Shown here in pieces: positions 39,403-63,349 of a stretch of 64,000 bases of DNA. Every line of letters begins with the position of its first letter. Position 1 is the stretch's first letter. Below the pieces are notes generated by a model. That model did not search any database. It was not told the DNA's origin and saw only the letters and a program-made list of their open reading frames with translations. The position numbers were made by a program, and so were the translations under genes. The stretch comes from Phyllosticta citribraziliensis (taxonomy: Eukaryota), in assembly GCF_038025025.1 (NCBI RefSeq), contig NW_027117341.1, forward strand, positions 2,046,001 through 2,110,000, in the 5' to 3' direction.

Positions 39403-40794
39403 CTAGCTCCAGTCACTCTGCAGATAAACCCGCGAAGGCGCTATGAGTCGCCGCTTCGAGTAGTCGTTTCCAAAAGCATCACCGCGAGCCATCAGTCCCA
39501 CGCCGACCAGCATTTGAATTTTTTCTCCATTCCAGGTCTCATCCTTCTCGTCCAAGACATCGTTGGCTTGATCGGCCTGCAAAACAGGGTCTTTGACTTT
39601 AAACGACTTTCCGACGACGCCCTCCGGCTGGACCCACTCAAATTGAGTCCGATGGGTCATCAACCGTAAGTGAAGATTGCCAGCTTGACGCAGGATCTGG
39701 CTGAGGTCTTGGTTCATCCCCAGTCTCTCAGTTTCATCCATATCCCTTTGGATCCACAACTGAGGAGGCCCCTCCAGGAACGTTTTCCGTAAGTAATGGT
39801 AGATTGATTTCAGGCCGTCCTTGGGTACTGACTTAGGGCAAAGGATCTCGTTTGGCTCGGCGCGCGTAGTCTGAGGGCAAGATGACTCCGGAAAACTATG
39901 CCTCAAGATGTTGAGTCTGAATGCTATCGCTTTGATGACGTCATCTGCCAGTCCTGTCAGCTCTCAGTCATCTTGGCCGCCACGAAAAAGCTCACCGGAC
40001 GACATTTCTTGGAACATCTTCTTTGCCACCATTCTGAAGGTGAATTCTCCCTTCATGTTATCCGGGTCACGCCAATGGAAGAAGGGGTCCTCGAAAATTG
40101 CGCGCAGAATGAAGTTTGACAGCAAAGCGGCAAAGACGAGAAAGGGATGCTCCAGCTCTCTCAAAGATCGGAAATCCTTGATGCTGGTGATACGCACAAC
40201 CTGGTGCAAGAACGCCTGCTGCTTAAAAAATTCTTCTTTTCGCTGTTTCGGAGGGAAGAGTTTCCCAAACGAGTCAACGCTGTACTTCCGGGCCCAGGTT
40301 CGTATGGACGACTGCAGGTCCTTTACAGCAAACGCGATTGACTGGTCGCCCTCGGGCATCCACTTGGAATCCTCGCACTTCAAGAACCTGTCGTGAAACA
40401 GCTGAAGCTGTTCGACACACTCGTCCAGCTCTTGCTGCTTTTCTTCAAGCTTTTGCTCGAGGTCCTCTTTCTCCTGGGACCATTGAGCAGCAACTTCCTC
40501 AAACTTCGGCCTTTGGCCCCTCTGAAGCCCAAGAATTTCTTCGACGTCCGTTTGTTGGCGTTCAATTTGCCCTTTCAAGGAGCTGACGAGTCGAAATAGG
40601 TCTTTGTCATCCAAATCAATGCTGGAGCTGTTCTTGTTCGTCGGCGAACGGGATGAGTCTCCATCTTCCGATTCGTCTTGTCCAATGTTATGGGATTCCT
40701 TTACCTCTGGCGTCCATTTGGCGCGTTTCACGGGACTGATCGCATCCTCCTTCTGTTCCGCTCTCTTTTGCTTGACAGGTCGTGATTTTGTCAT
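39403..40794 (-). CDS. Coiled-coil partner protein P1 (446 aa) with putative GrpE-like C-terminus; exons 40794-39996, 39944-39403
   Basis: Coiled coil, then WMPEGDQSI..IRTWARKY, HPF..FEDPFF, and C-terminal GDAFGNDYSKRRLIAPSRVYL. Phase-1 intron 39945-39995 at the same position as in P2-P4. Confidence 0.85.
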
Positions 40795-41627
40795 AGTCTC
40801 TTCTACAACTCAGGAGTTTCAGAAACGTGTGTTCCGAGAAAGCAACTGAGAAGCTGGAAGCTTTTATCTCGCAGAGTCCACCATGACTACGAAAACTTAC
40901 CGTGACCCATCATTCGAAGCATATCGAGGCCAACGACAACACGTTTCGCATATCATTACTGATTTCGGTTGTCAACGACGGTCGTACGTTGCTGAATCGC
41001 CTTGGCTTAACACGGGCGCGGCTGACGTAGAAGTTAAAATCACGAGCTTGCTTACCTATTGGACCCGATAGCACACGACTGGGCGTCAATCGAGGCGATT
41101 GCTCTAGCCCGGCCAATCAGCAAACTTCAATGAGAGGCTGAAAGCTTTCCATCCTGGCCATTTTTTCAGCCGCTCCTGTTTTCATCTGTCCCATCTCCTC
41201 AACACCAGATCAGACAGCCATCACATCGTTTGAGATTCATCAGCTTTCTGCCACGATAACAAATTTTCAAGTGCTGATATTGACAACCATGCGTCTTTCT
41301 TGCCGAGGGACGCAGTGCGTCAGTCTTTCGTAGCTCCGCTATGCCGCAAACACCTAGACTACCACTTCTGCTTAGGTCTGTCGGAATTTAACTCAGAGCT
41401 CGACGCACGCCGTCAAACACCAAAAGTCTTTGATATCCCACTTTCACATGCTGCCTTTCTATGCTCCCGTAGCGTTCCGCGGGCGACAATAGCGGGAGTT
41501 GTGAGTCCCCCAGTCCAAATCTCGACTCCTTTGCTGCAATACAAATACCTCACCAACATTTGTCAATCTCTGGCCGTCTTGTCGGTCGGAAAGGTCTAAC
41601 CAGGCTTCATCAGTCCTGTTCCGCAAC

Positions 41628-43606
41628 ATGCGTGCCTCCGTTACTCCTGAATCGGGCTCTTCCGAAGCTCGCGCGAGATCTGCGACGACTGAAATTGCAC
41701 ATAAAATTGTTCTTGGCCTCGACTTTGGCACAACCTTCACTGGTACGCATGGCGTGGAGCATTGCACTCAGATTGCTGACAGTTTGCCAGGTGTGGCGTA
41801 CGGTACGACTGCGGGGACTTCACAAGAAGTTGAAGTCATCTCAAACTGGCCGGGTGCCTCAATTGCCGCGCAAAAGGTTCCTTCGCGCATTGCCTACGAA
41901 GAGGAAAATCTGAAGCTCAGCTCCGACAAATGGGGCTACCAGGTGAACGGCCGAATGGCGTCGTATTCGTGGTTCAAGCTTCTGCTCGATTCCAACGTTG
42001 ACCGCACGAAATATGACGACGTTTCCCTCTTCACGGCCTACAGCGGAATCCTCCAGTTACCAGAGTGGCGCTCGCCCCGAGATGTGGTTGAAGATTACTT
42101 GGGCCACATCTGCGAGTTTGCGACCGAGTTCCTCGCCAAGAGATTCACTGAAGAAAGCTTTCGAACAATCCCAATTGAAGTCTGGATCACAGTGCCGGCC
42201 ATTTGGAGCGATGCCGCAAAGGATCAGACAAGGGCTGCGGCCATGGCGGCGGGATTCGGGTCTCACCCGGGTGACACCGTCAAGATGATTACCGAGCCGG
42301 AGGCTGCTGCCCTGGACGTTCTCCGCATGACGCGCAACTCGGTCCACCCCATTGCCAAAGGCGAAACCTTTATGGTCTGCGACTGTGGAGGCGGCACCGT
42401 TGATCTCACCACTTACGTCGTGCAGTGTTGCGAGCCGGGATTCAAATTTCAAGAAGTCTGCGCTGGCGAAGGGGGCAAGTGCGGCGGTTCCTTTGTTGAC
42501 CGCAAATTTGACGAGTGGATGACCAAAACGTTTGGAAAGAAGTATACTGAACTCAGTCCCAAGTATCGTGGTCCTGGCTCCGCGATGATGGAGTCTTTTG
42601 AGCGGGCCAAGCAACGATTTGAGCTCAAGTTGCTCGAGCGCGGCAACAGCGAGATGGTCGAAATTGAGCACGTCAAGATGGACAGGGATAGCTCCGACAT
42701 TTATGACCGCAGGGAGAGCACTGTCTCCTTTTCTTGGTAAGTGACCGGTGTTGCCACTTGAGTTCCCTGCTGACTACGTACAGGAAGGTGATGCAGTCCT
42801 TTTTTGATCCTGTCGTTGACAAGATCTTGGAGCTCGTCAAAAAGCAGGTGCGCGAGACAAAGAAAAGAGGCGGACTGAAGGTCAACCGCATCGTCCTTGT
42901 CGGAGGTTTTGGCGACAGCCGCTACGTAAGCCGACGACTGAAGTTCTGGTGTCAGTCCCAGGAGCTAAAGATCAAGTTGTTGTGCCCACCAAATTGCCAA
43001 GGGGCCATCATGAAAGGGGCCGTTATCTGAGGCCTTGAGGGCCTGAAGCCGAATGTTAGGATATCACGTCGGCACTATGGTTTCGGTATCAGTCTTCTGT
43101 TCAGAGACGGAAAAGACCGACCAGAGGACATGTGGGTGGGCAGTTTTGACCGCCAGAGGATGGCGTACAATCGAATGTGTTGGGCATTGAAAAAGGCAAG
43201 CCACAGTCGGCGTAGAAGAGCCGATGGCAAACAAACTGATCACGTGCAGGGTCAGAAGGTTCCGAGCGACTTCACGACGACTCAGAGTGTCCAGCGCGAG
43301 ATTTTGCCAAATGAGATCCGCGACCACGACGCCCTGGACGTCTTCACGTGCAGTGCAGATCATGCGCCAGACTTTGAGTACTCCAAGGGGATGAAGCTGG
43401 TCGGGACCATTCACATGACCTTCACTGAGGAAGACATGCAGAATGCCCGGTCGTGGTTCAACCACAAGATGAACAAGTGGGTCAAGGTGTTGTACTACGA
43501 TATTCACGTCAACATGAGCGCCGACGAGGGCTTTCTGACTGTCAAGGTCATGAACGACAAGCGAGAGATGGGAAACGCGGTCATCGAATTCTACCAAGGA
43601 GACTGA
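41628..43606 (+). pseudogene. HSPA12-like Hsp70 copy H1 with an in-frame TGA at 43028-43030; exons 41628-41742, 41791-42736, 42784-43195, 43250-43606
   Basis: GLDFGTTFTG, TVPAIWSDAAK, EPEAAA, CDCGGGTVD, LVGGFGDS. The stop replaces the Arg of GAxxRGL, and the downstream frame stays open and homologous to the paralogs. Confidence 0.8.
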
Positions 43607-45023
43607 GAACGGTTTGTGGGAGGAGAGGAGGCTTGTGAAATTTGCAATGCGTCAATTGCGTTGAAGGCGTTGAGCGTCACTTCTCATCCTGTCTAGGTCT
43701 TTCCTTCTTCACACAACCCACACTACTTTTCCTGTGCCACTGCGTCTTTGCTCGCTGGTACGCAAGTTCGTGCAGCCAGATTCGGTGATGGAAAACACGA
43801 CAAAATCTGCGCTCTGATGATTACGATTGACAGAGGCAAGCCGCTTCAAGCGGCGTCTACCTCCAGCATTTAGGGTAGCTCGACGCCTCAATCCAAGATC
43901 GCTCGCGGAGTGGCCAAACACCACATCCAGACTCTAGCGGTCCCGACGCTGTCGACAGGGAGTCGTTGAGCGGTGAGCGGGCCGCTGCGTCCTTCTCGCT
44001 TGCGATTCCTTGTGGTCGCGAACAATCCCTGTCGTTGCATTTGACATCTCCCCTGCTGCATGTAGGCATGCGGCAGCCAGCCGCAGTCTGCAGCGCGTTG
44101 ATGGCTTGGTGCCACGCAGACTCTCGGCGTGCGTGGAGCTGTTAGACAGCCAAAGAAAGTCGACAACACGGCAGATCGAGTTCTTCCCTTTATTCAACGT
44201 CAAATTTGCGTGAGGAGATAGGCCCTGTCTGGCTTGATTCGCTTCACGCCGACCGCACAGCGTCCAGCAGCGGCAGGTCCAGCGACAATGCATGCCAATC
44301 GGCTCAGCTGCATGTGCTGCGGGAGCCGGGAAGTGGCCCTGTCTGCCTTTTGTCAAAGCTCAGCTACCAGTGCGGGCCAACCGTACCTGTGGGACTGCTC
44401 AAAGCAGCGACCAGCATTAGCTCGAGACATGCCCCAACAGCTCTGCAACGCAGTGGAATACGAGAGCCGCTCGCGGAACTGCCTGATGGCTTGTTGACAC
44501 GGACTGTGATGTCATTTGTACACTCCAAATCGATTGGTGGATATCCGGCAGCCGCGGATTCAGCGAGCGAATCCGCGCTGCAGCTCAGTGGTGGCAGCTG
44601 GGTACACCGAGACGAGCCCCCTCCAGCGGTAAGCAAACAAGTGCTCGTCTCGCGGCTTGCTTCAGAATGCGTTTGGGATGATTCAGCGTCTGTCGAACTG
44701 AATTTGGAGTCTGAAGAGAAAAAGTACAGGAGACAGAAAACCCCAACCAAGCATTTGCGTAGGTCCATTCTTTGCCGATTTTTGCATTCTTTCCGTTGCC
44801 CTCGTTTCCCTGCCTGTCCTTCGCGAGCCCAGCAGTATATCTTTGTCGTAAGCACAATGGGCCGAGTGAGGCATGCATGCGAGCCATGCCCCTGTTCACA
44901 GAGAGATGAGAGCTGTTGCAGGCGAAGATGGGCGATTCGGCGTTGGAACGGCACTTTGAGAGAGCTTTGTGTCAGTGAGGAAAGCAGTGAATGGATGACG
45001 AGCGGAGTGGCAATTCTCTTGAC

Positions 45024-46653
45024 TTACGCAGCGTCGATTTCGCCGATCATGGCTGGCTCCAGCAGCATATTCGGAGCGGGAGCTGGGCGCTTTGGATTCA
45101 GATAGACGCTTGCACCTACGATGATGCGAGATTGCTCCTGATGATGCCCCTCCGAGTCTCCATACGCAACCAAGCTCGTGCCGAAAACGATCTGGACAAG
45201 CTTCCCATCGTGCGATGTGTCCTCACTGTGCAAACAGAGGGCACTTGCGGGATTGAACAAGCTCGACCGGACTGAGAATGGCCTTCCGAGGTATAACACA
45301 GGGTGCGTCCATACGAAGTGGCATTTCTGGGTCAGGAGACACAGGTGGATGTTTCCAGCCATCACCATAAGCTCGTAGAGGCGCTCGATGCATTGTTCGA
45401 CCTCTTTCTTTGTTTTTTCATCCTTTCGCAAGCGTTTGGGCCACGGCCCGTATAGGAACTCTTCGCTCAGATCTCTGTAGAGACGTTGGATCCTGTCTGG
45501 TGCAATTCTCTTTGGGCAGATCGGAACGCGTTCGTGTATCGCCTGTGCTGTTGTTCGTTTACTGGGATCTGGGAAGACGCTGCGAATGGTTTGGGTGCGC
45601 CATATGCTCGCTCCCTTGGGATCATCTACGCTGAGGTTAGAGGAATGTTGTAGTGTGACTGGGCACTTACCAGACTGCATATCCTCAAACATTCGCGTAG
45701 CCTTCACCGCGAATGACTCTGGTGCATCCAATCTTGCTGGATCCTGGAAGTGGAAAAAAGGTTTCGCCAGGATCTGGCTCCGGATGAATTCGGAAAGAAT
45801 GGCTGTCGTCACAATGTCCACTGGATCAAACTGCAAAGCAGATGTCACTTCCTGGAAACCGCTGACACGGTGGACCATCTCATTTAGTGCCTGGAATGAG
45901 AATCGCTTCTTGGCAGTTGAGATAGCGCGTGGATGGAGAGCTTTGGGGCACCAGTCTCTAGCCCAGCTCTTGATACTCCTTTGCAAATGGTTGACAGAGA
46001 GTTGAATGCTGCTGTCGTCCTCGGGGCCCCATCCGCCATTTCCGCTACTGCTGAACATGAAGTCGCGTAGGTATTCGACCTGTTGCTTCAAGTGATCGTT
46101 CTCCAGGGCCATCCTCGTACCATTGTCCAATATCTGCCTGAGAGCATTCGCCTCCTGCGTCTTTTCGTCCACCTTCTTGTTGGCGCTTTCCAACTCGCTT
46201 CTCAGGGTGGTCAATTCTTGCGCCTCAGAACCCTGCTGCTGGACGTTGAGAATTTTCCAGATCTTTTTCAAGACGGCCTCAGGTGATTCATGCCTTTTCG
46301 ATTTCGGGGGACGCCCTAAGAGCAGTGCAGAATTAGCTCTTTGATGTCTAGCGTTTGTTGGCCCATCTGGCCCCGCATCGTCGTCAAATCCGTGCAGTCT
46401 CGGTCCATGGGAGATCCAGAAGTCGAAAATTGCCACGCATGACCAATTCGTGCCCTCAGCTGCAACGAGGCTGCACTTACTTTGCGGGCACAACCGAGCA
46501 GGGCTTTGCGAATTTCATCGACTTACCTCGAACTTTGCCGCGGGGGTTGACAGGCTTGAGCTTTCGCGCTTTCACCACTCGAACCTCCTTGGATTCACGG
46601 AGAGATAGCGACTTGAGTCTGATAGATCGTCGGGGAGTCTTTGGCTGATCCAT
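45024..46653 (-). CDS. Coiled-coil partner protein P2 (~457 aa); exons 46653-46527, 46315-45671, 45625-45024
   Basis: WGPEDDSSI..IKSWARDW, KPFFHFQDP, GDSEGHHQEQSRIIVGASVYL. Conserved 45-nt intron 45626-45670. First exon inferred from GTAAGT donor (46526) and CTAAT..TAG acceptor (46316). Confidence 0.8.
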
Positions 46654-47411
46654 TTGAGGTTCCAAGGGACGAAGACTTTCGGTAGATACGAGGTAGATGG
46701 GGAGCAAGTTGAAGGTTGTCAGTGAATGGGATGGGGTTGAGCGTCGGTCCGCGAGTGGTAGCGAGGAGCTTAACCCTGCAGGCGCGTATTCAAAAGCGGC
46801 GGTCCCCCTTGGAGGCCGGGAACTCGCAGCAGCGACGTGAAACTCTTCCTACGCGCCTTGCCGTTGACATGTCCAACCACCCACACCGCATCTTCTCTTC
46901 GGTACACGCAGTTCCTGGCTTGACGGAAGGCGATTTAATGTCAAAGATCGTGATAATGAGCGCTCAGTGGGGCCCTCCTCGTGTCTGGATTTACTGAACG
47001 AACAAGAGGGTAGTTGGCAATGGTCGTTCGCTGTACGTCTTGGTAACCGTAAAGACCGTGATTGCGAGCTTGTTCTGCGCACACGTGGTCAGCTGCATGA
47101 TGGTAGGACAAATTGGACGGAAGAGAGCGTTGTGTTGTGGCCAGATCCATGTGATGAACCAAATGCCGGGCGGTCCTCGGGCGGGTACGTGCATGACCCC
47201 GCAGGCATCTGAGATAACATGAAAAAGTAGGTATCACGAAGTTGAACAGGCATCGCGTCCTGTCACCACTGGCTTTTTTCTCGGCCAGCAATTTGAATCC
47301 TTTTTCCTCTTTGCCAGTGATCCAACCTCCTGCTCGACCTCAGTCCGCTCACGTTGTTACTTGCAAATCTCGACCTGTCTTCCCGCATCGAGAACCAGCG
47401 GTCCGGCCGCC

Positions 47412-49412
47412 ATGGAGCGCGCCTCGGCCACTCTTGTCCAAGTGGACAGCCATGGCTCTGCGGCGCCATCGGCTCAGAAGATCATTGTCGGACTGGATTT
47501 TGGCACCACATTCTCTGGTGAGCTATGCCGTTGCGGATTTCCCATATGCGACAACCCAAACTCAAAGCTCATACTGACACGGCGTAGGTATGTGCTGGGT
47601 CACGTCGAACGGGCAGGCCAACGACATTGAAGTCAAGAAAAGCTGGCCTGGGCGGGCCGAAAGTGTATCAAAGGTCCCGTCACGCATAGCCTACGCGTCG
47701 GAAAATCCCACTCTGAACGCGAACCTATTTGGATTCCAGATCAGGCCTTCCCACAAGCAAGTAGCCTGGTTCAAGCTGCGCCTCGACGATGAAGCAGCCC
47801 CGACCGAGTACGACGACCCAAATCTGAGACATTTTACAGACCCAGGACAAGATCACCTCCCCGCAAGGTTGACTGCAAAGATTGTCACCAAAGACTTTCT
47901 CAAAGAGCTCCACGCCCTTCTCATGATAGATCTTCGCACGTCGATCGCTCCCAAACTGTTGAGCAAAACTTCAATCGAGGTCTGGCTCACAGTGCCGGCG
48001 TCCTGGAGCGACCCCGCCAAGATGAAGACTCGCGAGGCTGCGATTGAAGCAGGCTTTGGCAAGCATGAAAAGGACTCGGTCAAGGTGATTTCGGAGCCCG
48101 AGGCTGCTGGAATCTTTGCGCTCTGTCCAGAAGTCAACCAGAACGCAGAACTCGTTGCGGCTGGCGAGACGTTCATCGTTTGCGATTGTGGCGGCGGCAC
48201 CGTCGACCTGACGGTGTATACATTGAAATCTGCACCCCCAAATCCGGAATTCCTAGAAATCTGCAAGGGCAAGGCGGGCAAGTGCGGTGCCACAATGATT
48301 GATCGAGCGTTCTGTTACTGGATGGAGAGGACCTTTGGAGAGGCCTACACTAAGCTTCCGCAGGCGCAACGCGGTCCCGGTTCTCACTTCATGCGCGAAT
48401 TCGAGGATTGCAAGACGACCTTCAGCAGCCGAAACATCCCGAACTTTAAGCATGAATACTTTGAGATTAGCCCCATCAAGATGGATGTGCCAAGGTCGTC
48501 CAAGTATGATAGAGAGAGTGAATCTGTCAATCTGTCTTTGTAAGTCATGACCATTTCCAGGAGCCTGGGAAATGCCTCTGACAAAAGATCCTAGGAAAAC
48601 GTTGAAGCGTTTTTTTGATCAAGTCATTTCGCACGTCATACAGTTGCTCGAAGAACAAATCGAAGAGGCCAGGATGGCGCTGGGAGGGAAACATGTCGAC
48701 CGCGTAATTCTTGTCGGCGGCCTGGGCAATAATCTCTACCTCAGAGACAGGCTGACGGAATGGTGCAGGCAGCAGACGCCAGTCCTCGGCCTCATATCTC
48801 CTCCATATGGCGAATCTCAAAGCTGCATCATGAAGGGGGCCGCAATTCGCGGTCTTTTGGGATTGAAGCCGACCTACCGCGTCTCTCGGCGTCACTATGG
48901 CTTCGGCGTCAGCCTTCATTTTCGCGAAGGCATTGATTCTCCGGAAGACGCTTGGTTAGATGACGATGGGGAGAAGATGTGCTTCGGTCGCATTGTCTGG
49001 CTCGTCCGCAAGGCGAGTTGAGCCATGACATCCAAAAGTTCCCAGACTAATGGTGTAACAGGGCCAATTCGTCGAAAACGATTTCCACATGGAGGTCAAG
49101 GTCCGCAAGTACTTCACGCACAGCACGCGCAGGCGAGACGTAGTAGAGCTCTGGTCTTGCGACGGGGACCATGCACCAGACTACGAAAGCGATGACAGCC
49201 TATTCAAAGTGGCTTCAATCAGTTACGACTTCTATAAGAGCGACTTCAAGGGCATCAAGCGTACTTACAGCAACACGTTGAAGAGAAATTGCCAGATCCT
49301 CAATTACTTCGTCCGCGCCAACATGGGCGCCGATGAGGGAGTCTTGACTGTCGAGGTCGCGGGCGCAAGGCTATTCGGGTCGGCGAATATTACATTCCAC
49401 GAAATGGACTGA
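47412..49412 (+). CDS. HSPA12-like Hsp70 copy H2 (608 aa); exons 47412-47517, 47588-48539, 48595-49012, 49062-49412
   Basis: GLDFGTTFSG, TVPASWSD, EPEAAG, CDCGGGTVD, LVGGLG. Last intron is GC-AG (49013-49061). Confidence 0.9.
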
Positions 49413-51409
49413 TATGCAGTGTTTTTTGCCACCTCAATTTTATCACTCGTGGACGGAAACCCCTTGGCACTTGGGCTCGACAGCACTCGGGACATGGAAA
49501 GCCATGGTGTCGTGCTGGCTCAGCGCTTGAGGACTGGAATTGGTTCTGGAGGACGCTACTTTCTCGTTCATACCTCGATACCCAGGAATGCTGTTTTGTC
49601 TTGATCTAGCGTTCGACGGCCTTCCGTTGAGTCTTGGTCGCTTGATACACATCTTAGCTGTTTTGAGAACCTACGACATGCAGGTGTCTTCATGTTCCGA
49701 AAACTCGGTCTTTTCCAACCCTCTTGTGTTGTCATATCTTCTCTCTGACAAGGCGATTGCAGCCGTGGACCTGAAGGACTCACGGACCACGGCTGGTGAA
49801 TGCTCGCCGGTGCCCGATTGACTGAGGTTGCCCAACACAACCCATGAGAGGTGTTGTACACTCAAATATGAGCTTTGAAGAGCATTCTGGCTGCCTTGAA
49901 AAAAGACAGAGCGGTATTTCAAATCAAGGCGCAGGGGACGGAATGTTGGCAGAATGAGCGCGCAAGCCGAGCTCACCAAGAGGCAGTCCGGTAGTGCTCC
50001 GAATCCACCGCATTTGAGCCTCCCGCGATGCGCCTTTTGGAGATGAGATCAATTGATGGCATGACGCAATTGATGAGGTGGCCAACTGAATTTTGATGCT
50101 TGAATGTCGAGGCGTTCCCAGGTATCAGACGTTGTGAGGTCCTAGGGTGCCGTGGGTGCCTGAGGTGGTAAGAGAGCGGCCCCTCAGCGCTATGCCCAAT
50201 CCGGTATCCCGCCTGAGGCAACGAACTCGTGGACGAAACTCATCACCTTGATGGATTCAACACCATGACGCCATCATACAACAACCAACAGCACTGATTG
50301 AGCTTACCTGACGCTGCAAGCTACGGCACCTTTGCCTCTCATGCCACAAATTGGAGGGCGCCGGCAAGTTACAACACTACCGATGTACATCTGATCTCCC
50401 TTCCTCTTCTGCAACCGCATGACGGCGCTGGCCAGATGAGCCGCACAGCTCCCTCCTCCCTCGCCTGTCGCTCGCGACATTTTCCAACGCTGCACCATTC
50501 AAAGGCATCATTTCGAGGTGACAGATGATACCGTCAGCTTTGCAATTCGTCTGTCTTTGATCAACACCAAGAAGTAGGCACCGCCACCGATGCCGGAAAC
50601 GCCACCACGACACTCGACAACATCGGCTGCTTCTCTGTCGAGTCGCTCGACAATGCCGCAGAACAACGTCAGAGTATGGTCAAGTTCTCCCTGTGGCCTT
50701 GCACCTGTGCTGACCAGCAACGCTGTGTAGTTCCTCTTCCATCGACCTCTTCCTCATAGCACCGCTCAATGGCAGCGCCGAGATGCGATAACAACGCCGT
50801 ACGGGCAGGGCGGAGTCCGTCGTTGACAAACACCGAGGGCAAAGAACCACCGCCGTAGCCGCCGCCGGCCCCAACGCTCAGCTTCCTCGACGCATCCTAC
50901 CATCACTCTCTCAAGCCGCCCACCGGCGCCAGACACGGTACAATGCTTTGGTCGAGGACAGGACGTCAATGGCGACATGTCAGAGCAGGATGGATACACG
51001 CGCGACTGCGACACCACGCTTGCCGGCCGCGCCAACATCTTTTCCTCCCCTCCCCCGACTGCCACTGTCACCCAGCGCCCATCTTCGCGGCATGGCGCAT
51101 GCCACAACATCGGAGTAGGATAGACGTACCTCCGCTCCGCCACATCGCATTCGCCCCTTCCCAGGCATCTCTCTCTTGCCCGCCCGTTAGCGAACAGTGC
51201 TGCTCAAAAACACCGTCGCGAAGCGCCCCGACAAAATGTGCTCAACAACCACCTGCATCTTTCTCGTACCTCAGGCTTGTCGGCGTGTTCTCGTAAGCCC
51301 CCAGCAGTGCGGCGCTGATGTCCAACAACATCCCGGTCATTGCACGGGCTTGAGCGCCCCCAGGGCAACGTCATGCCCTCGAGGCGGGCCGTACCGAGCG
51401 CGAGCGTCG

Positions 51410-52900
51410 CGTGTCGATCTTTCTGCATGGATGAGGCGTTCGCTTCGTCGAGCAGCTGAGGAAAGTGTTCGGCAACGCTGCGGAACTCGCCACGACGGCG
51501 CTGCATAGCGCCGCTCGCCCTGCGCCGCGCCGTATCATCGAGGTCCACCGCCGCCGCGAATGTGAGGGTGGTGGATTGAAGTTCCTCTCCGCACAGCACC
51601 GCTCCCTCTGTACACCGCGCCGTATCGTCGAAGCCCACCGCCGCGAATATGATGGTCGTATCTTGATCTTTCTGCGCGGATGAGGTGTCAGGGACGACGG
51701 CCGCTGAAGACACGGGGGTAGACGGGCTTGGAAACTCTGAGGACCTCGCGACCTGGCTGCTGGGCAACGCTGCGCTCCTGGTAAAAGGCGCCGTATTACC
51801 GAGGCTTGCCGCTTCAAGTACGAGTGTCGGTTGTCGATCTTCTGCGAAAACGAGTTGTCAGCGACGTCGACTACTTGAGAGCTGGGGGCAAACGAGTTTG
51901 GAACCTTTGTAGACCTCACAACCTGGGCGCTGGACAGCGACGCTCTCCCCATGCGCAGAACCGTGTTGCCTAGGACCGCTACGGCCTGCGCATGTCTTCC
52001 TCTCCGATCTCTTTTTACGAGTGCGGCGGCAGCGTCGTAGACCGCTTCAGTAACAGTATCGTAGCCTCTGCAGTCCTCGCAGCAATCCCCCTGGGCCGCA
52101 CCGCTCTCCCGGTGCGAACCCTTTTGCCGTCAAGGCCTGCCATAGCCAGCACGAGCCTTGCCCTTCGATATCTTTGCGCAAGTGCGGTCGCAGCGCCGCG
52201 GAACGCTCCAGGAAACGGCGTGGTAGAGCCTGTAGACCTCGCCACAACGGCGCTGGATAACGCTGCCTTCCCCGTACGCAGAATCGAGACATCGAGGTCC
52301 GCCATAGCGAGCGCGCACCTTTCCCGACCTTCCTGTGCAATTGGAGTGTTAGCCTCGTTGACCACTTCGGCTGCGGTGTTGAAAACTCCGCCGCAGCCTT
52401 TGCCACGGTATCGCTGGTAGACAGCGCCGCCCTCCTCGTGCGTGGCATCGAGAGCACAGGGTCCGCCATTGCGCGTGCGCGCCTTTCCCAAACTTTCTGT
52501 GCCAATGGAGTACCAGCAGTGTTGACCCCTTCTTGAGAGACGGCGTTGTAACCTCCACGGCCCTCACCACATTGCCGCTGGACCTCAACGCTCTTCCCGC
52601 ACGCAGCACTGACGTATTGAGGCCGTTCGTAGCCAGTGCAAGTTGTATTTGCGATCTACCTGCGTGGATGGGACGTGAGCGACGTTGACCACTTCTCAAG
52701 AGACGGCAACGTGACCTCCGCAGCCCTCGCAACCTCAGCGCTGGCCAGTATCGCCCTCCCCGTGCGCAGTATCGTGCTCCTGAGACCCGCCACGCCGAGC
52801 ACAAGCTCCGTCGTCGATTTCCTGCGCGCATGCGGTGTCAGCGTCGTCAAACGGCCGCGTAAGAACTCTGAAAGCCACGCCACCGTACCTGCGTAAGAGC
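51410..52900 (+). repeat. Degenerate tandem repeat, about 9-10 units of mostly 160-170 bp; possible relic of a repeat-protein gene
   Basis: Anchor motif (G)xCCTCxCxAC..GCGCTGG..GCxCTCCCCGTxCGCAG recurs near 51484, 51744, 51914, 52075, 52237, 52398, 52562, 52725, with weaker copies near 51584 and 52875. Confidence 0.75.
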
Positions 52901-53862
52901 GACACAGCGTCAACACGCCGGCCCGCGACGCCGCATCGCTGCTGCATGGCAGCCATGACGCCAGCTGTGTGCGATTTCTTGCTCGTAGGGCACAGCAGCG
53001 GCGCAAGTTGCTGCAAGAAAAGCGGCACAGGTTGCAGGCTTCCTGGTCTTTCGCATCCGCGTCGGTGGGTATGGCGTGGCGCGTCGCGGAAGGGTGTGCT
53101 TGCGCGGACGACGGGGAGGAGACGTGTCGGTGGTGCTCGCGTGGTTTCGCCTGGAAAATTGTTAGTACGAGAGGACGGTAGCGTCCGCGCAACGACGACG
53201 CGGAGCAGCGGAGTTGCAGCGCGCTTTCTGGCCTCGAGTCACTGAACCGACGCGCTTTGTCTACGCGGATATGACGGCGTCAAAGAGCACGGAAAGGAGG
53301 AGAAGCCAGATTGATTGAGCAGCACTACCGAGCAAACTTTTGAGGCGAGCTGAGGCTCGATTAGAAGGAATCAGAAAGCAAGCAAAGAAAAGAAGCACGC
53401 CTGTCCGTCCCGCCGACCGAATACTCCCTTGCTTCCAAATACACGTTCTCCTTCGTATTCTGTATTCGGTCGGTGTGTTTTTGAGCAAAGCCCTCGCCGT
53501 ATTGGCTGATGGGCAGGTGTCGGGCAAGCAATTAGGCAAAGAGAAAAAGCAAAAGAGCAAAGAAAAAAAGCAGAGAAGCAATCAGAGGCCCTGGTGCCGA
53601 AAGGTCCGGCTGTTTCTGTGGTCTGCTGCTTCGACTGAGGCGAGAGAGTGTCGCCAGAAGGTTCGTCCATCTCTTTCGCATCTCAGCAAAACCCGTCAAG
53701 CAAGATTGAGGTCTTTGTACGAAAGGAGGTAAAGACGTTATGGTTGCACTTCCTTTATGCCGTTTGAAATCGAGCTTTGTGTCGCTGAACGACTCAGTTC
53801 GAGCGCATCGGGATCGAGGATACCGCGGATGCTTTTCTGTCCTGTGTCTGATTTATCGATGT

Positions 53863-55267
53863 TCAGAGCTGACTGTCCTCCAAGTAGACCACAGCTTTTG
53901 CAATGACTCGATGACGCTCATAGTCTTCGCCATGGCTGTTTCCATGAGCGAGAACAACCGGGCTCAACACAATCTTGACTCTCGCACCGTCCATGGTTGT
54001 CTCGCCTTCGTCTTCGTCAATCTTGTGGAGACGGTCAGCCCTCAAGTAAGGCGAGGCGATGAAGAAATCAACACCGATCAGGTCTGCTGGCTCCATCCAG
54101 CTGTAATAGACACGCTGAGTTTGCAGGCGCCCGTAAACATTGGCTGCGCGGGTCACCAGCATGCAAAGGTCCTGTTTGCGGTTGTCCTGTTCGTTCTCAT
54201 ACAAATCCTTCATCATGAATGCCGCTGAACTGCGAAGGAAAATGTTGGCCATGGTCGAGTGAAACTCTTCCGCTTCCTTTTCGGACCTCAGAGAGCCAGA
54301 GATAGGCTGATCCATGTTTCTGTGGCCTCCATTCTTGAATACGAAACGGCTGAGCTGAGTGCGCCATGCATGGGCCTCAGTGACTCGATCTATTCGATTT
54401 CTGGTCAGCACGGCAAATCCGAACGCTGTGGGATTGCATGAGCGGTTTACCTGTGCACATCTTGAGGAAGATGTCGTAGAACTTGCCGTGCAATGACTTC
54501 TGGCTGCCGTCGTTCAACCAAAAGAATGGGTTCCGAAACACAAGGTGACGAAGAAACTCTGACAAGAGCGCCGCCAAAACAATGAACGGGTGCTTCATCA
54601 TCTCAATCTCATCGATGTTGGAAAGCGAGCTGACTCTTCCGACCTTCGCACCAAATTCCCGCTGTGTTTTCTCATCAAGGCGACGGAACTTGCTGGCACA
54701 TGAAGTTCCCGAATCACCATACGTCTTGGCCCAGCTCCGAATGTCCTTGTAGATTTGCGACAAGTCGTCTCGGATCTTGGAGTCGTCCTCTGGCAACCAC
54801 TCTGTCTGGGCCTGCTTGAACGTGCTGATCTGGGCCTTGCGAAGGTCCAGCGTTGCAGAGTCCAACTGGCCTTGTACCTTTCGCAGTCGATCGACAAGTT
54901 CATTCTGCGATGCCTTGAAGCGAGCGCGTTCGTTGACAATGACTTCCTTGAGAGCATCGACTTCAGTTGAGTTTCGAGTCGAAGCGGCTCTGAGTGTGCG
55001 AATCGCCTTGGACTGCTTTTCGTTCAGCATTCTGGCTTCATCCAGCTCGTTCGACATGGCAATCATGGTTTCTTCCATCCGACGCATCCTCCTCGTAGTG
55101 CGCTCGAGCTGCGAGCTTGGTGTAGTGTCCGGGTCACTGGCATACCCATCAGTGATTTCGGACAATGCATCATCGCGGACCGAGTGGAAAGGCACGCTAC
55201 TTCCTCTTGAGCTGTGTGTTTGGCGTGGGCTCTTGAGGAAATCGGAAAGTCTTGAGAACGCGTCCAT
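53863..55267 (-). CDS. Coiled-coil partner protein P3 (447 aa); exons 55267-54451, 54389-53863
   Basis: Coiled coil, WLPEDDSKI..IRSWAKTY, HPF..FRNPFF, GNSHGEDYERHRVIAKAVVYL. Conserved intron 54390-54450. Confidence 0.88.
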
Positions 55268-55610
55268 TTTGGGCGCGCAAACGCTCGAATGTGAGATCGC
55301 AATCAGTAGCAGGCCAGGTGTGGTAAGAGTTCCTGTAGACAAAGAGCAAAGGTGGTAGAGGTTTGCTCAGTGGAGCGTCGTGCGCAGGACGTGGGTTTGT
55401 TGTTTGTTGCCTGTCGGGGAGGGAAGGTGCTGGCCTTGCGCCTTCCAGCCAGCACTGGGCAGTCCACCCACCCACCCAGACTCTGCGCCCACTCCCTCCG
55501 CCCAGCAACTCCTCTCTCCCTCTTCCACCCTCAACCTACCACCTTCACCTCCTCTCAACACCTTTGGCTCTGCTCGGCGGATCAGAGAATTCGCCCTGCG
55601 CTCTGCCATC

Positions 55611-57549
55611 ATGGCGCCGTCCCTTCACAAGATCATAGTTGGTCTTGACTATGGCACGACATACACCGGTGAGCTCGCCAGTTTGCGCACTCGAATCCTT
55701 CCCAGTTGCACACACTGTGCTCTCAAACGACCAGATCACAGCATGCTGACAGCTCCTGGTAGGCGTCAGCTACGTCACCTCCAATGAAGAGTCAATGGAA
55801 AAGATAGAGGTCATCAGTCAATGGCCAGGAACCTCTGACACAGCCTCCAAAGTCCCTACGAGGATTGCATACGCCAGCGAGAACAACAACCTGATGACCG
55901 ACTCCTGGGGTTTCACCGTTGCGGCCTCGATGGAGTCCTATAGTTGGACCAAGCTTCTTCTTGATCGCACCAGCACGCTCACCGACTTCGACGATCCCTC
56001 TCTCAGGAACCTCATGGGATTCGGCATGATGAGACTTCCTGTCGACAAATCCGCCAAAGAAGTCTGCGAAGACTTTCTAACTGGACTTCATCACTACACG
56101 GCCATGATTCTTGCCAAGAAATACTCGCCTGAGATCTATGATATCACACCCGTCGAATGCTGGATTACAGTCCCTGCCATCTGGAGTGATGCAGCAAAGA
56201 ACGCCACTCGGTCAGCAGCCATGATGGCTGGCTTCGGATCTCGACCCAACGATGCGGTCAACATCATCACCGAGCCTGAGGCAGCTGCCCTTGCTGCGCT
56301 GAAGCCGCACGTGGACCCACGAAGCATTGACCCTGTCCATCCCGGAGAAAACATCCTTGTCTGCGACTGTGGTGGTGGTACGGTGGACATCACCACATAC
56401 AAGATCATGGAGGCTTCGCCCCGCTTGCTCTTCAAAGAACTTTGCGTTGGCATCGGAGGAAAGGTTGGATCAACCTACATCGACCGAAACTTCAACAAGT
56501 GGCTCAGCGACACTTTCGGCGAGGCCTACACCAGAATTCCCGCCAAGAAACGTGGCCCAGGAAGCGCCTTCATGCGTTCTTTCGAAACAGCGAAGCGTGC
56601 GTTCGGCAGTAACCTCGATGGACGGAATGAGATGAAGTTCATCGAAATCGAACATCTCTACATGAAGTGCTCTTGGTCTTCGAGCTTCGACGAGGATGAG
56701 AATACCCTCAAATTGACTTCCGCCGACATGCAAAGTTTCTTCGACCCCGTTGTCAGCGATGTTCTTCGTCTCATAACTTCCCAAGCTGATCGCGCAAAGA
56801 GCCTCGGCCATCCCGTTGACCGCGTCATTCTTGTCGGAGGTTTTGGAGACTCCGACTACTTGGTCGGACGCATCAGGTCCTGGTGTGAAGCGCAAACAGT
56901 ACGGGCGAAGCTGACCTGTCCACCCCAATGCCAAGCTGCAATCGTCAGAGGTGCTGCTCTGCGTGGTCTCGAGGGTCTCAAGCCCTCATCCAGGATTTCT
57001 CGTCGCCATTATGGTCACCCGGTTGGCCTTCGATTCCGCGACGGCAGAGATCCAGAGCAACACGCCTACCACAATCATTGGCACGACAAGAAATATTGCT
57101 CGTCGCGAGTTGATTGGGGCGTTCGCAAGGTGAGTAGCTCTTAGTTCTTGTTGCACATTTCTGTTCACGATGTGACTGACGTCTTGTAGGGACAGGAGAT
57201 CAATGACGACTTCGAAGTTGAACTCGAAGTAGGCCGCAACTACTACAACACGGACTTGCGCTATGTGAACAAGGCCTTCCATGTCAAGCTTCTCTGCTGC
57301 AGCTCCGATGACGCTCCTGAGCAGGAATTCGAGGCTGGGGTTGAGAAGGTCGGCACCATCTCCACGGAGTTTTCTGACCTCGACTTTGCGAGTGCGCCGA
57401 AGCGCTTCAAGCAGGGTATTGGCTGGATCCACAGGCTTGAATATGTCATCAAGATCAGATTTTCGGCTGAAGAAGGCGTCTTGGTCTTCTCTACCTGGAT
57501 CGAAGGACGTCAAGCTGGTCATACCAAGGTCGAATTTCACGACACTTGA
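55611..57549 (+). CDS. HSPA12-like Hsp70 copy H3 (594 aa); exons 55611-55668, 55763-57129, 57190-57549
   Basis: GLDYGTTYTG, TVPAIWSDAAK, EPEAAA, CDCGGGTVD, LVGGFGDS. Two GT-AG introns. Confidence 0.92.
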
Positions 57550-59135: not shown

Positions 59136-59263
59136 ACCTTGATTTGCTAGTGCTACGTATCTGTTCCTTTCCCGGCGCGCAGAAACAACATCCAGCCCAC
59201 CTCCCGGCCTCCTTCGCGCATTTTGAGGGCACTGATGTCCAATCCCGTCATTAACACGTCCGT

Positions 59264-60660: not shown

Positions 60661-61311
60661 CTTGGATGTTTTCTCTCCCCGTGAAAAAAGTTGTTCGACG
60701 GTTACGGAGAGAAGCCCCAGCCTTCCTGTGGAACAGAAGGAAAGTAAGCAGCGATGGTCGGGTCGATGTCGAAGTTCTGTGCCCATGGTATGTACAGAAT
60801 CACTCTGTCCCTTGTTGGGTCTCAGAACCATGGTAATGACCTGGCCATGAAGTTAGTGCAACGCAAAAGTGACCAAATTATACCCACAGAAAAGGGGCAC
60901 CCAGAAGGTTCCTGGTAACGATTTTGAGGCACGTTTCTAGAACAAGGAACATTAACGAGTCGAATCACGGTTCGATGGCGGAACCTTTTGTCCATGGTTA
61001 TGGTCTTTAAAAGTCTCCATGTGACGACTAACACCTTGTTTCCGCAGGATTCGACGACGCGCAAGCAAGCAAACAAACCAAGGATCATGGTTTCGCGCAA
61101 CGATTACTGTTGAGAAAGACGCGCCGCTCTAGCGCCGATTCCTTTCCCACATGTTCCCTTCGCGAACTTCCTAAAGACTTCTTAAGCTCCCACTTACGTC
61201 CATCCTGTGCCCATCCATCGCTTTCCCACCACCAGGGCTCCTAAAAAGACATATTCCACTCAGATTCTTCGATTCAATCCCACCCCAGCCTTTACGTCGC
61301 TGGGCTAGGAA

Positions 61312-63349
61312 ATGGTCAACACGGGTATTAGGATCGTTGTCGGCGTCGACTACGGAACGACATATTCTGGTAATATCCTGTAATGTCCTGTCGTGAGTCT
61401 CCATCTTTGCTAACTTGAGCTACACAGGCATCAGTTATGTCGCATCAAATGAGACAGATCCCGACAAAATTGAAGTTATTAACCAGTGGCCTGGCGCTCC
61501 TGGCGTTGTAGCCAAGGTCCCTACGCGCATTGCCTACGCCGTCGAGAACCCAAATCTGGGGACCGACAAATGGGGATTCGCAGTCTCATCTGGCTCCATT
61601 TCCTACACGTGGACAAAACTTTTGCTCGACGGAAGCGCCAATCACGCCGAATACGATGATCCTGCGTTGCAGGACCTCTTTGGCCAGGGAATGATGCAGC
61701 TTCCACCACACAGGACTGCAAAGCAGCTGTGCGCTGATTACCTGGCAGGTTTGTATGAGTATATGGTTGCCATACTCTGCAAGAAGTTTTCCAAGGAGGT
61801 GTATGAGATCACGCCCATTGACCTGTGGCTTACGGTTCCGGCCATCTGGAGCGACGCGGCGAAGGATTCCACGAGAATTGCAGCTGTTTTTGCTGGTTTT
61901 GGATCTCGCTCTTTTGATCGTATTCACATCATTTCCGAACCCGAAGCTGCAGCTCTCATGGCACTGAAGCCGCACCTCAGCTTGGATTCGCTCGATCCTA
62001 TCGATGCTGGCGAATCGATTCTCGTGTGCGACTGCGGCGGCGGAACCGTCGATATCACCACCTACCGCATCCTTTCCACACAACCAACTTTGTCATTTGA
62101 AGAGCTTGATGGCTGCGTTGGAATAGGAGCCAAATGCGGTTCGACCTATATCGACCGCAACTTCAACAGCTGGATGACTAGGACTTTTGGCAAAGCTTTC
62201 TTGTCCCTGTCGCCCAAGAGACGCGGGCCCAACAGCTCGTTCATGCGCTCGTTTGAAACCGCAAAAAGATCCTTTGGTTCCAAGCTGCTTGGCAACAACG
62301 ACCAAAAGTGGATCGAGATTGATCACATCAACATGGACGTACAAAATTCCAGCAACTACGACTACGATGAAGCCACTGTGAGAATTTCTTGGTAAGTACT
62401 CGGCTCTGGGCCGACCTTCTTTTGAGAATTAAGTGGTCGGTGCTTGTTTCCGTCAATGGCTCCTCTTGCATCACACGTCTCCTCCTCAGCGCTAATTCTA
62501 GGACAGGCATGAAATGAAATCCTTCTTCGACCCGGTTGTTCACGACATCATCGATCTTGTCAGCACTCAGGTTGACTCAGCCGCAAAAGCTGGCCACAAA
62601 ATCAACCGCATTGTTCTCGTGGGTGGTTTTGGCGACTCGGATTACCTCAACGAGCGGATGTCCATTTGGTGCTCTCAGCTTCCAGGCAACGTGAAGCTCA
62701 CATGTCCCCCTCAGTGCCAGGCAGCTGTCGTTCGTGGAGCTGCTCTCCGCGGTCTTGAAGGGATCCGCCCCGTTACAAGACTCGCACGCTGTCACTATGG
62801 ATATAGCGTCAATCAGGAATTCCGCCAAGGGATTGATCTCGAGTCGCACAGCTACTTCGACAGATTTGATGGCGCTAAGATGTGCAGGCATCGCGTCGAT
62901 TGGCGTTTTGCAAAGGCAAGGTTCAATCTGTCACTTGTGTGAGTTATTCACTAATGAAAGGATGTCAACAGGGCCAAAAGATTAAATCCAGCACAGTGGC
63001 AACTTTCAGTCTGACTACAAACGTCAAAAAGGACGAGATTCCCCAGTGCAGGATGACCCTTTACTCATGTTCGAACGACACACCACCAGAGTACAAGTAT
63101 TGCGATGCTGCTCGCGAGGTTGGAGAAATCAAAGTCAGATTTTCAAGCAACGACTTTGAAAAGGCCGAAAGGCGCTTCAACGAATCCACGAAAGAGGTCA
63201 TTTACCGTTTCCACTTTACAGTGAAAATGCATATGAACGCCGAAGAGGGCGTGTTAAAGTTCAGTACCTTTGCGTACGGCAAACCTGCAGGTGAGGCGAC
63301 CGTGAACTACCGAGAAATCGAGGCTGGCGTTCCTGTCCGCGACTCTTGA
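61312..63349 (+). CDS. HSPA12-like Hsp70 copy H4 (602 aa); exons 61312-61369, 61428-62391, 62507-62915, 62972-63349
   Basis: GVDYGTTYSG, TVPAIWSDAAK, EPEAAA, CDCGGGTVD, LVGGFGDS. Last intron is GC-AG (62916-62971). Confidence 0.92.

Follow-up and report, generated by a model that had tools for sequence, protein, structure and literature searches.

The locus described here raises the question of whether an Hsp70-like ATPase (H) and a coiled-coil protein (P), encoded head to head in four successive gene pairs, act together and, if so, in what capacity. The window, the whole stretch of 64,000 nucleotides of DNA that was analyzed, comes from Phyllosticta citribraziliensis, a citrus-leaf fungus, and the P and H proteins encoded in it are identical to database entries of this species. 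A preliminary description proposed a co-regulated two-component system, diversified into four specificities and possibly acting in non-self recognition or defense. The analysis presented here makes it moderately probable that the locus comprises four tandem copies of an old, co-inherited module, each made up of the ATPase H and a dedicated partner P, which would serve as cofactor or adaptor. No description of such a module was found in the full text of the literature searched, in agreement with the earlier statement that none was known.

In all four divergent pairs P lies on the minus and H on the plus strand, and the ATG-to-ATG distances in pairs 1 to 4 are 834, 759, 344, and 652 bp. The phase-1 intron of P and introns 1 and 3 of H are present in all four copies, and H intron 2 is present in three, being absent from H3. 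The uniform orientation, start-codon spacings, sizes (594–609 codons for H, 446–457 aa for P), and common intron positions given in the preliminary description are thus confirmed, the last with the exception of H intron 2. The 3′ end of P2 has been shifted to 44897 on RNA evidence; if the 3′ intron is left unspliced, the product has 457 aa and ends at 45024. The P1 intron has 42 nt, is in phase 1, and contains a TGA. Within the window, neither tblastn nor hmmsearch --max found any additional P or H gene, whole or degraded. Truncated or split models occur several times among the public annotations: P0007 (276 aa) ends within the P1 intron, and P0001 (P2) is truncated at the N-terminus, as is P0157, otherwise the same sequence as H3. 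P0168 (603 aa) differs from H4 solely in the choice of intron 3.

Coordinates of the P/H array and of its intervening regions in the window.
Feature	Coordinates	Strand	Structure and size
P1 coding region	39403..40794	-	exons 40794-39996 and 39953-39403; 449 aa
Divergent intergenic region 1	40795..41627	.	833 bp
H1, lidless Hsp70-like	41628..43606	+	609 codons; introns 41743-41790, 42737-42783, 43196-43249 (GC-AG)
P2	44897..46653	-	exons 46653-46527, 46315-45671, 45625-45028 and RNA-supported 3′ exon 44953-44897; 475 aa
Divergent intergenic region 2	46654..47411	.	758 bp
H2	47412..49412	+	608 codons; introns 47518-47587, 48540-48594, 49013-49061 (GC-AG)
Spacer	49413..53862	+	0.58-0.59 G+C over 50-54 kb; outside the P and H families
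P3	53863..55267	-	exons 55267-54451 and 54389-53863; 447 aa
Divergent intergenic region 3	55268..55610	.	343 bp
H3	55611..57549	+	594 codons; introns 55669-55762, 57130-57189; without intron 2
P4	59264..60660	-	exons 60660-59853 and 59796-59264; 446 aa; identical to public protein P0003
Divergent intergenic region 4	60661..61311	.	651 bp
H4	61312..63349	+	602 codons with GC-AG intron 3; introns 61370-61427, 62392-62506, 62916-62971

H is one of a large family of Pezizomycotina proteins that bear the annotation "hsp70-like" and consists of a complete nucleotide-binding domain followed by a beta domain. The match to Pfam HSP70 (PF00012) is confined to the nucleotide-binding domain, with H1 and H3 above the gathering score, H4 at it, and H2 just below it. 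The residues of the Hsp70 ATPase motifs phosphate-1, EPxAA, DxGGGTxD, and VGG are invariant or nearly so across 98 relatives and present in all four H proteins. By sequence the closest solved relative is a BiP domain (E 1.5e-8), and the nucleotide-binding domains of BiP and DnaK match at E ∼1e-8, placing this part of H in the Hsp70 superfamily. The AF2 model of H, calculated for the public H4 protein P0168 (pLDDT 90, pTM 0.89), has no long helix past residue 425, the only helix of at least four residues beyond that point being 539–542, and contains an all-beta domain at 437–590, a putative beta sandwich, in place of the Hsp70 substrate-binding domain. The top Foldseek match of the model is full-length ATP-state DnaK (4b9q, E 1.7e-25, TM 0.59–0.60, ∼610 columns); these alignments to full-length DnaK and BiP, with ∼610 columns and a TM of 0.6, were obtained with the whole model as query, including the beta domain, for which no sequence match was found in Pfam or among solved structures. 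The C-termini (...YQGD, ...HEMD, ...FHDT, and ...VRDS) include no EEVD. H therefore departs from the canonical client-cycling Hsp70s, which have an alpha-helical lid and, in cytosolic forms, a C-terminal EEVD, and is called HSPA12-like because it retains the Hsp70 ATPase motifs and an intact ATPase domain but lacks lid and tail; motifs, model, and C-termini all agree with the preliminary assignment. A language-model search with H returned a chordate 'HSPA12A.1' cluster with a score of 0.97, as a neighbor by feature score, and one fungal H relative carries the annotation 'heat shock 70 kDa protein 12A'.

The partner is a protein of a different kind. In the AF2 model of P (pLDDT 86) a helix of 110 residues, which probably dimerizes, is followed by a helical bundle and a small beta domain. 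P matched no family in Pfam, NCBIfam, or PADLOC, and a P profile retrieves 881 cluster representatives at E ≤ 1e-3 (351 at E ≤ 1e-10), so that P defines a large protein family without a Pfam entry. Among ten representatives looked up, eight are hypothetical or uncharacterized proteins of named Pezizomycotina and two are without a name; a family member in Neofusicoccum parvum is named 'Kinesin heavy chain'. An Atlas structural search with residues 155–446, which compares predicted models, returned clusters of MIEAP (TM 0.53, mostly Mollusca) and of GIL1_IRKI_C (TM 0.59), as well as a Basidiomycota cluster (TM 0.69) in which 73% of members have a GTPase (MMR_HSR1) domain. The corresponding MIEAP and GIL1_IRKI_C families (PF16026 and PF24994) are found in none of 98 P-family members at E ≤ 1.

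Counting the co-occurrence of P and H in other fungi, the check put forward in the preliminary description, supports the pair as a conserved unit of two genes. A survey with H fetched 78 metagenome loci totaling 680 kb, and in 20 of them P sits directly upstream of H in opposite orientation; no other P matches occur in the 680 kb. When only loci with 2.5 kb or more of upstream sequence are counted, P is head to head with H in 16 of 21 at >30% H identity, whereas 2 of 14 at ≤30% carry P. The five P-less loci of the former group comprise four short matches of ∼100 residues and one full-length match of 31% identity, and P is missing from the neighborhood of at least one fungal H-like gene, of 27% identity. 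The environmental loci hold a single pair each and no arrays. In annotated genomes, where neighborhood was read from GenBank accession order, P adjoins H in Aplosporella and, besides P. citribraziliensis, in six Phyllosticta species, with consecutive accessions in Aplosporella prunicola, P. citrichinensis, P. capitalensis, P. citricarpa, P. paracitricarpa, and P. citriasiana. Pairing persists amid differing neighbor genes, in 12 distinct environmental loci and in annotated genomes of these two Botryosphaeriales genera. The accession order H4-P4-H3-P3...H2(-H1) in P. citricarpa, P. paracitricarpa, and P. citriasiana is that of the window, and by this measure the array is seen, with its order kept, in four citrus Phyllosticta species. 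The recurrence of the pair across many filamentous fungi points to a dedicated partner, not described before, of an orphan Hsp70 class.

The paralogues are old, with H pairs 40–52% and P pairs 23–28% identical. The closest paralogues agree between the two families, H3/H4 with P3/P4 and H1/H2 with P1/P2, and to judge from these relationships the array arose through duplication of whole modules rather than of single genes, in keeping with the four-fold array of a two-gene module in the preliminary description. The distance matrices of H and P are correlated over 16 pairs (r 0.65), a value reached in none of 5000 permutations. Positional orthologues among Phyllosticta species are 45–58% identical for P versus 65–89% for H, and P. 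capitalensis has extra H4-like copies.

Spliced contigs from two RNA runs show transcription and splicing of H1, H2, H3, and P2; these data permit no ranking of expression levels. The GC-AG intron of H1 and both introns of H3 are spliced, and all three minus-strand introns of P2 are joints in runs X1 and X2. RNA of H2 has an additional spliced stretch of 56 nt (48713–48768), resulting in a frameshift and a stop at codon 447. The contigs listed over P1 are taken to be antisense because they carry plus-strand introns and retain the P1 intron, and a 7175-nt contig crosses P3 with only plus-strand introns and the P3 intron unspliced. The RNA listed over P1 and P3 is thus antisense or unspliced, and not every pair need be active. 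H1 had been counted as intact, which does not hold: an in-frame TGA at 43028–43030 falls where 116 of the 119 family members aligned have an Arg, and an RNA-derived contig covers the site without differing letters. H1 is therefore probably a pseudogene, and the array in this genome is partly decayed or regulated. Nor are co-regulated pairs borne out by the intergenic regions, all four of which share no promoter motif, heat-shock element, or k-mer. The spacer contains degenerate repeats of ∼163 bp at 51.4–52.8 kb and is transcribed and spliced on the plus strand (introns 50674–50730 and about 53658–53884). The earlier statement that these 24 kb hold no other intact gene is thus doubtful in view of the spliced plus-strand RNA from the spacer and from opposite P1 and P3, and stands insofar as no protein family was recognized in the spacer or on the strands opposite P1 and P3.

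If P is the dedicated cofactor or adaptor of the adjoining ATPase, the two would act together as one machine. P could be GrpE-like in function only, as a dimeric coiled-coil factor on the nucleotide-binding domain of H, or could recruit H to a target, and each duplicated pair would have co-diverged. Against this, common ancestry and a promoter region used by both genes could by themselves account for linkage and correlated divergence, and the P-less loci, the H-like gene without P, and the RNA over P1 and P3 also count against it. P and H might then be held together by nothing but a shared bidirectional regulatory region or chance synteny, with products that work apart. Compact fungal genomes commonly contain divergent pairs with 0.3–0.8 kb of shared promoter, and none of eight long P-family proteins is a P–H fusion, which weighs against a single machine as well; the pairing nevertheless survives differing surroundings, whole modules rather than single genes were duplicated, and with no motif common to the four intergenic regions no common regulatory element that would hold the genes together is evident. 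This makes such a bystander relationship quite improbable. About as improbable is that P is a true but very diverged GrpE homologue, the nucleotide exchange factor of the neighboring ATPase. The layout of the P model is alike (long helix, further helices, and small C-terminal beta domain), and GrpE 4ani_A, the only match on the second-look list beyond plain coiled coil that aligned over its whole chain, superimposes on P residues 103–436 (VIA-align Z 4.4, rmsd 5.8, 156/156 residues, 14% identity), which also hints weakly at a GrpE-like shape for a P that is GrpE-like in function only. This Z is within the range that VIA-align terms common arrangements, however, and P has ∼200 extra helical residues. 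A 98-sequence P profile aligned to E. coli GrpE with an hhalign probability of 0.2%, PF01025 occurs in none of the 98 members at E ≤ 1, a profile search of PDB sequences gave coiled-coil noise with GrpE absent among the best 60 hits listed (E ≤ 10), and Foldseek with the P model gave nothing below E 0.1.

A role in diversifying non-self recognition or defense, with a sensor–effector pair whose four copies represent different specificities, would be consistent with the fast divergence of P, the tandem arrays in the family together with the extra H4-like copies of P. capitalensis, the nonsense allele of H1, and the GTPase-containing Basidiomycota look-alikes of P. One report (PMC9073689) also describes an Hsp70 orthogroup, putatively the H family, with 6–7 genes in endophytic versus 4–5 in pathogenic Phyllosticta. 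However, Pfam searches of H, P, and 98 plus 22 family members found no HET, NACHT/NB-ARC, HeLo, toxin, prion-forming motif, or other death or recognition domain, and at E ≤ 0.01 none of six pieces of H and P matched a PADLOC family. The pair is kept across Pezizomycotina classes and the array order between species, arrays are absent from the environmental loci, and the 90%-identity clusters of P and of H each contain several P. capitalensis strains, so that no extreme within-species polymorphism is visible. These findings, together with the partial decay of the array, lend no support to four specificities in a recognition or defense system, a reading that we consider unlikely. Least probable, and by our estimate very much so, is a toxin–antidote pair in which one product, such as P, is harmful unless checked by the adjoining ATPase. 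It can draw only on the tight two-gene linkage and on a dead H1 beside a P1 with solely antisense RNA in the contigs listed, whereas Pfam detected neither a domain resembling a toxin nor any signal peptide, nuclease, or pore family, and the broad vertical conservation is unlike that of selfish elements.

The reading of P as the dedicated partner of H matters beyond this locus. HSPA12-type Hsp70s range from fungi to humans, and a 2026 review (PMC13580251) describes HSPA12A/B as lidless, massively expanded in bivalves, and still of unknown function. A family encoded beside such an ATPase across Pezizomycotina offers a concrete handle on that function, with P as candidate cofactor or client, and the four co-diverged pairs in one genome predict cognate specificity. 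A more far-reaching conjecture, which we regard as a long shot, is that P represents, in fungi, a class of proteins spread throughout eukaryotes that combine a coiled coil with a MIEAP/GIL1-like domain, and that this class supplies the partners so far missing for lidless HSPA12-type NTPases. If so, the partner would be encoded next to the HSPA12-type gene in Ascomycota, the same domain would occur in Basidiomycota in a protein family with a GTPase domain in most members, and in animals the MIEAP-domain proteins would cooperate with the HSPA12 proteins, both groups being expanded in molluscs; P/H would then not be a housekeeping chaperone but a machine for surveillance or stress that is driven by NTP and diversifies fast.

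Among known systems, DnaK–GrpE and other Hsp70s with dedicated cofactors resemble the P/H pair in that an Hsp70-type ATPase has its own elongated helical partner, with which it works or next to which it is encoded. Further Hsp70s with dedicated cofactors are those of HscA–HscB and Ssz1–Zuotin. P and GrpE have no sequence relation and P is twice as large, P/H is a divergent gene pair of eukaryotes and not an operon, and H is without the lid of client-binding Hsp70s. MIEAP (PF16026) and the plant GIL1/IRKI C-terminal domain (PF24994, DUF641 proteins) share with P a coiled coil followed by a C-terminal domain, at feature scores of 0.78–0.83, under the 0.9 that the tool sets for more than a lead; the literature searched yielded no link between such proteins and Hsp70. 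Two-gene loci for allorecognition and cell death in fungi, such as het-S/NWD2 (compare PMC3321046, PMC4344463), are likewise tight gene pairs with fast-evolving members and tend to form paralogous families, but no NLR, HET, HeLo, prion-motif, or pore-forming domain was found in P/H, and its pairing and array order are conserved between species rather than idiomorphic. The closest likeness of H is to vertebrate HSPA12A/B and the bivalve HSPA12-like proteins, which also keep the catalytic motifs in the nucleotide-binding domain and have no lid or EEVD, a placement made by architecture and feature score. For HSPA12 no conserved partner was found reported in the literature searched, whereas the fungal H genes have one, encoded divergently at their side.

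The head-to-head pairing of H genes (lidless Hsp70-like, + strand) with P genes (an unnamed coiled-coil family, - strand) extends past the array of four pairs, P1/H1 to P4/H4, in this window. Seventy-eight metagenome loci, 680 kb in total, were fetched via alignment to H, and their six frames were scanned with P profiles. P was present in 20 of these loci, each time on the opposite strand to H and immediately upstream of it, with the two matches 0.6-1.3 kb apart in 17 cases and 1.3-3 kb apart in the other three; no P was found elsewhere in the 680 kb. Six of the 20 loci are duplicates (L016=L017; L024=L025=L026=L044). Each locus carries one pair, and its P intron occupies the same position in the profile. 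In the loci that extend 2.5 kb or more upstream, P accompanies H in 16 of 21 where H identity exceeds 30% versus 2 of 14 where it is 30% or less; the five P-less loci of the first group are four short matches of ~100 residues (contigs of 0.46-0.64 G+C) and one full-length match at 31% identity. The co-occurrence that the preliminary description proposed to count is seen in the better metagenome loci as well as in annotated genomes. At 9995-11614 of locus L030, an H-like gene without introns (27% identity) has no P nearby; this contig is judged fungal from its Gti1/Pac2 neighbour, and the P-linked genes are therefore one branch of a wider fungal group of lidless Hsp70s.

In annotated genomes, where gene order was read from GenBank accession order on the assumption that the two agree, P and H are neighbours in Aplosporella prunicola and in several Phyllosticta species (see the table). 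The accession order H4-P4-H3-P3 ... H2-H1 is that of the window, suggesting that the array is older than these Phyllosticta species. In P. capitalensis (proteins P0171, P0174, P0178, P0180, P0199), extra H4-like copies lie no more than about 12 accession numbers from the H3 orthologue, and the H1/P1 pair is found ~100 genes off, indicating that the size and layout of the array vary within the genus. Non-pathogenic model fungi such as Neurospora crassa and Aspergillus nidulans also have family members.

Exon models of the four like-built units give H1-H4 products of 609, 608, 594, and 602 codons and P1-P4 products of 449, 457, 447, and 446 residues, with the paired start codons 344-834 bp apart (834, 759, 344, and 652 bp, ATG to ATG, for pairs 1-4), reproducing the lengths and distances first reported. 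The shared intron positions also hold: H intron 1, placed after GTT(F/Y)(T/S)G, and intron 3 occur in all four H genes, intron 2 in three (lost in H3), and one phase-1 intron is common to all four P genes. The donor of H intron 3 is GT in H3 and GC in the other copies. P4, H3, and H4 are letter-identical to public P. citribraziliensis proteins apart from model differences; truncated public models exist for P1 (276 aa), P2 (347 aa), and H3 (531 aa), and P3 is absent among the proteins returned. The 39 kb upstream hold housekeeping genes (D123, Laa1/HEATR5, PABA synthase, RBR ligase, Sld7, a permease, and leucyl-tRNA synthetase). No fifth copy or remnant of the pair was detected in the window or spacer by tblastn or by an HMM scan with --max (E<=0.1). 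In the four P/H intergenic regions there is no trimeric heat-shock element, and no 7-9-mer is common to all four (chance expectation 0.21 or fewer).

Features of the array in window coordinates, and neighbouring P and H genes in annotated genomes.
Feature or genome	Position or accessions	Strand	Detail
Array of four P/H units	39.4-63.3 kb	P -, H +
Leucyl-tRNA synthetase gene end	38946
H1 in-frame TGA	43028-43030	+	GAVI*GLEGLKP
H1 intron 3, GC donor	43196-43249	+	GCAAGC
H2 intron 3, GC donor	49013-49061	+	GCGAGT
H4 intron 3, GC donor	62916-62971	+	GCAAGG
P2 3' intron region	44897-45027	-	intron of 74 nt
H2 GT..AG stretch, exon 3	48713-48768	+	56 nt
Contigs antisense to P1	39188-40855	+	introns on + strand
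Contigs spacer to P3 to H3	50731-57127	+	introns on + strand
Spacer between pairs 2 and 3	49413-53862		4.4 kb; 0.58-0.59 G+C over 50-54 kb
Degenerate direct repeats in spacer	51.4-52.8 kb		~163 bp
No cover in run X4	~53.4-58.7 kb
Aplosporella prunicola	KAF2137317 / KAF2137318		P/H consecutive
P. citrichinensis, two strains	KAK8161276-78; KAK8160314-16		H4-P-H3
P. capitalensis, three strains			several consecutive P/H pairs
P. citricarpa	KAK7535587-90		P/H consecutive
P. paracitricarpa	KAK7607926-30		P/H consecutive
P. citriasiana	KAK7526415-18, 21, 22		P/H run

The four-pair array described at the outset stands, but its genes are not all intact, as H1 carries an in-frame TGA. The residue at this site is Arg in H2-H4, in 116 of 119 aligned relatives, and in the H1 orthologues of P. 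citriasiana (89% identical) and P. capitalensis (82%), and the TGA reads the same in an RNA-derived contig. Two sequencing runs, X1 and X2, were taken as containing RNA from their spliced joints, the run labels being a guess; contigs were compared over a 20-kb stretch with P4/H4 outside it, and splicing is reported for the joints listed. In both runs spliced RNA confirms the exons modelled for P2 and the 211-nt intron at its 5' end, and an extra 3' intron begins just ahead of the apparent P2 stop codon, replacing it with an 18-residue tail to give a 475-aa product. Splicing was likewise found in X1 and X2 for H2 introns 1-3, H3 introns 1 and 3, and H1 intron 3, so that the GC-AG intron 3 is spliced in the contigs of both H1 and H2. 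A further stretch in exon 3 of H2 is spliced out in both runs, deleting the VGGxG motif region and causing a frameshift with a stop at codon 447, which could reflect unproductive or regulated splicing, or decay.

Other transcripts run across the pairs. Contigs with + strand introns begin close to where the leucyl-tRNA synthetase gene ends and cross the whole of P1 antisense, others extend from the spacer over P3 and into H3, and a - strand intron lies inside H1; the P1 and P3 introns are unspliced among the contigs listed. Neither a long reading frame nor a family match was seen in the spacer between pairs 2 and 3, but it is transcribed and spliced, with two + strand introns, and the initial statement that no other intact gene was recognised in 24 kb is doubtful. 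Run X4, from a related organism at 90-99% identity, leaves about 53.4-58.7 kb without cover.

The copies themselves are old, judging from pairwise identities of 40-52% among H and 23-28% among P. In a 119-sequence tree built from the top matches to H3 only, a single Botryosphaeriales clade holds all four H (support 0.76), H1 is sister to H2 (0.999), and H3 and H4 each group with their own orthologues; by pairwise identity the P paralogues group as H does (P1/P2, P3/P4). Across 16 pairs, H distances correlate with P distances (r 0.65, reached by 0 of 5000 permutations), a correlation for which common ancestry alone can be sufficient. P is the faster evolving of the two, with identities between positional orthologues of 45-58% against 65-89% for H.

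P matched no family in Pfam, NCBIfam, or PADLOC, and at E<=1 Pfam returned only coiled-coil families for 98 members. Searched with the profile, 1.84 billion representatives yielded 881 at E<=1e-3. Ten representatives were looked up: two are nameless, and the other eight, which come from Phyllosticta, Aplosporella, Arachnomyces, Rhizodiscina, Orbilia, Dactylella, and a Phaeosphaeriaceae species, go by hypothetical or uncharacterized. In eight long members the coiled coil is longer, and there is no Hsp70 domain. One member from Neofusicoccum parvum (P0009) is named 'Kinesin heavy chain', presumably owing to its coiled coil, and its 35.5-kb contig also has an H homologue, four accession numbers away. 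For P4, AF2 (pLDDT 86) predicts a 112-residue helix (40-151), a helical bundle (158-355), and a six-strand beta domain (360-434). Foldseek found nothing in the PDB under E 0.1 for the P model, the profile gave only coiled-coil noise against PDB sequences, and a wide VIA-align search returned only long-helix or coiled-coil matches over residues 35-153 (Z <= 7.4). Atlas structural matches to residues 155-446, which may serve as leads only, are a Basidiomycota cluster of ~630-aa proteins, 73% with an MMR_HSR1 GTPase domain (TM 0.69), plant DUF641/GIL1 proteins (TM 0.59), and MIEAP-domain proteins, mostly molluscan (TM 0.53).

The role in defence or allorecognition proposed in the preliminary description is consistent with the fast evolution of P, the tandem arrays, and gene decay, but no recognition or death domain was found, gene order is conserved, and visible within-species divergence is low, and we consider it unlikely. 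It is quite improbable that P and H are linked by co-regulation and nothing else, and that they form a toxin-antidote pair is very improbable indeed. P might instead be a true GrpE homologue: a second structural search aligned 4ani_A along the whole chain, weakly (Z 4.4). Against this, hhalign of P with E. coli GrpE gives a probability of 0.2%, and neither the profile comparison with PDB sequences nor Pfam on the 98 members shows a relation; with the model-based comparison weak and the sequence test negative, such homology is quite improbable.

P and H are probably a two-part machine inherited together, in which H would be the ATP-driven lidless Hsp70 and P a dimeric coiled-coil partner, a candidate for regulating or directing H. 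Within that machine, a GrpE-like action of P on the nucleotide-binding domain is conceivable, and we would give it roughly a third of the weight. Pfam matches to H are limited to the Hsp70 nucleotide-binding domain, and its motifs, whose residue roles we take from Hsc70, are invariant or almost so in 98 relatives. As initially recognised, all four copies keep these ATPase motifs and none ends in EEVD. No description of the P/H pair was found in openly available full-text literature; one Hsp70 survey covers the seven yeast-type subfamilies only (Kominek 2013, PMC3879978), and another source gives a Phyllosticta Hsp70 orthogroup, a candidate match to H only, that numbers 6-7 genes in endophytic species and 4-5 in pathogenic ones (PMC9073689).

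In Pezizomycotina the H family is very large (3531 proteins at E<=1e-5 among 8000 candidates scored), under names such as 'hsp70-like protein', 'actin-like ATPase domain-containing protein', and once 'heat shock 70 kDa protein 12A'. PADLOC and NCBIfam give only DnaK/HscA matches to H, far under threshold, and the closest solved relatives are the ATPase domains of BiP and DnaK (E about 1e-8). The AF2 model of H4 (pLDDT 90, pTM 0.89) predicts an all-beta domain (437-590) after the ATPase domain and no helical lid, and Foldseek aligns it with ATP-state DnaK over ~610 columns (E 1.7e-25, TM 0.6). By language-model features a chordate HSPA12A cluster is close to H (0.97); HSPA12 is reported to be a lidless Hsp70 of unknown function that is expanded in bivalves (PMC13580251).
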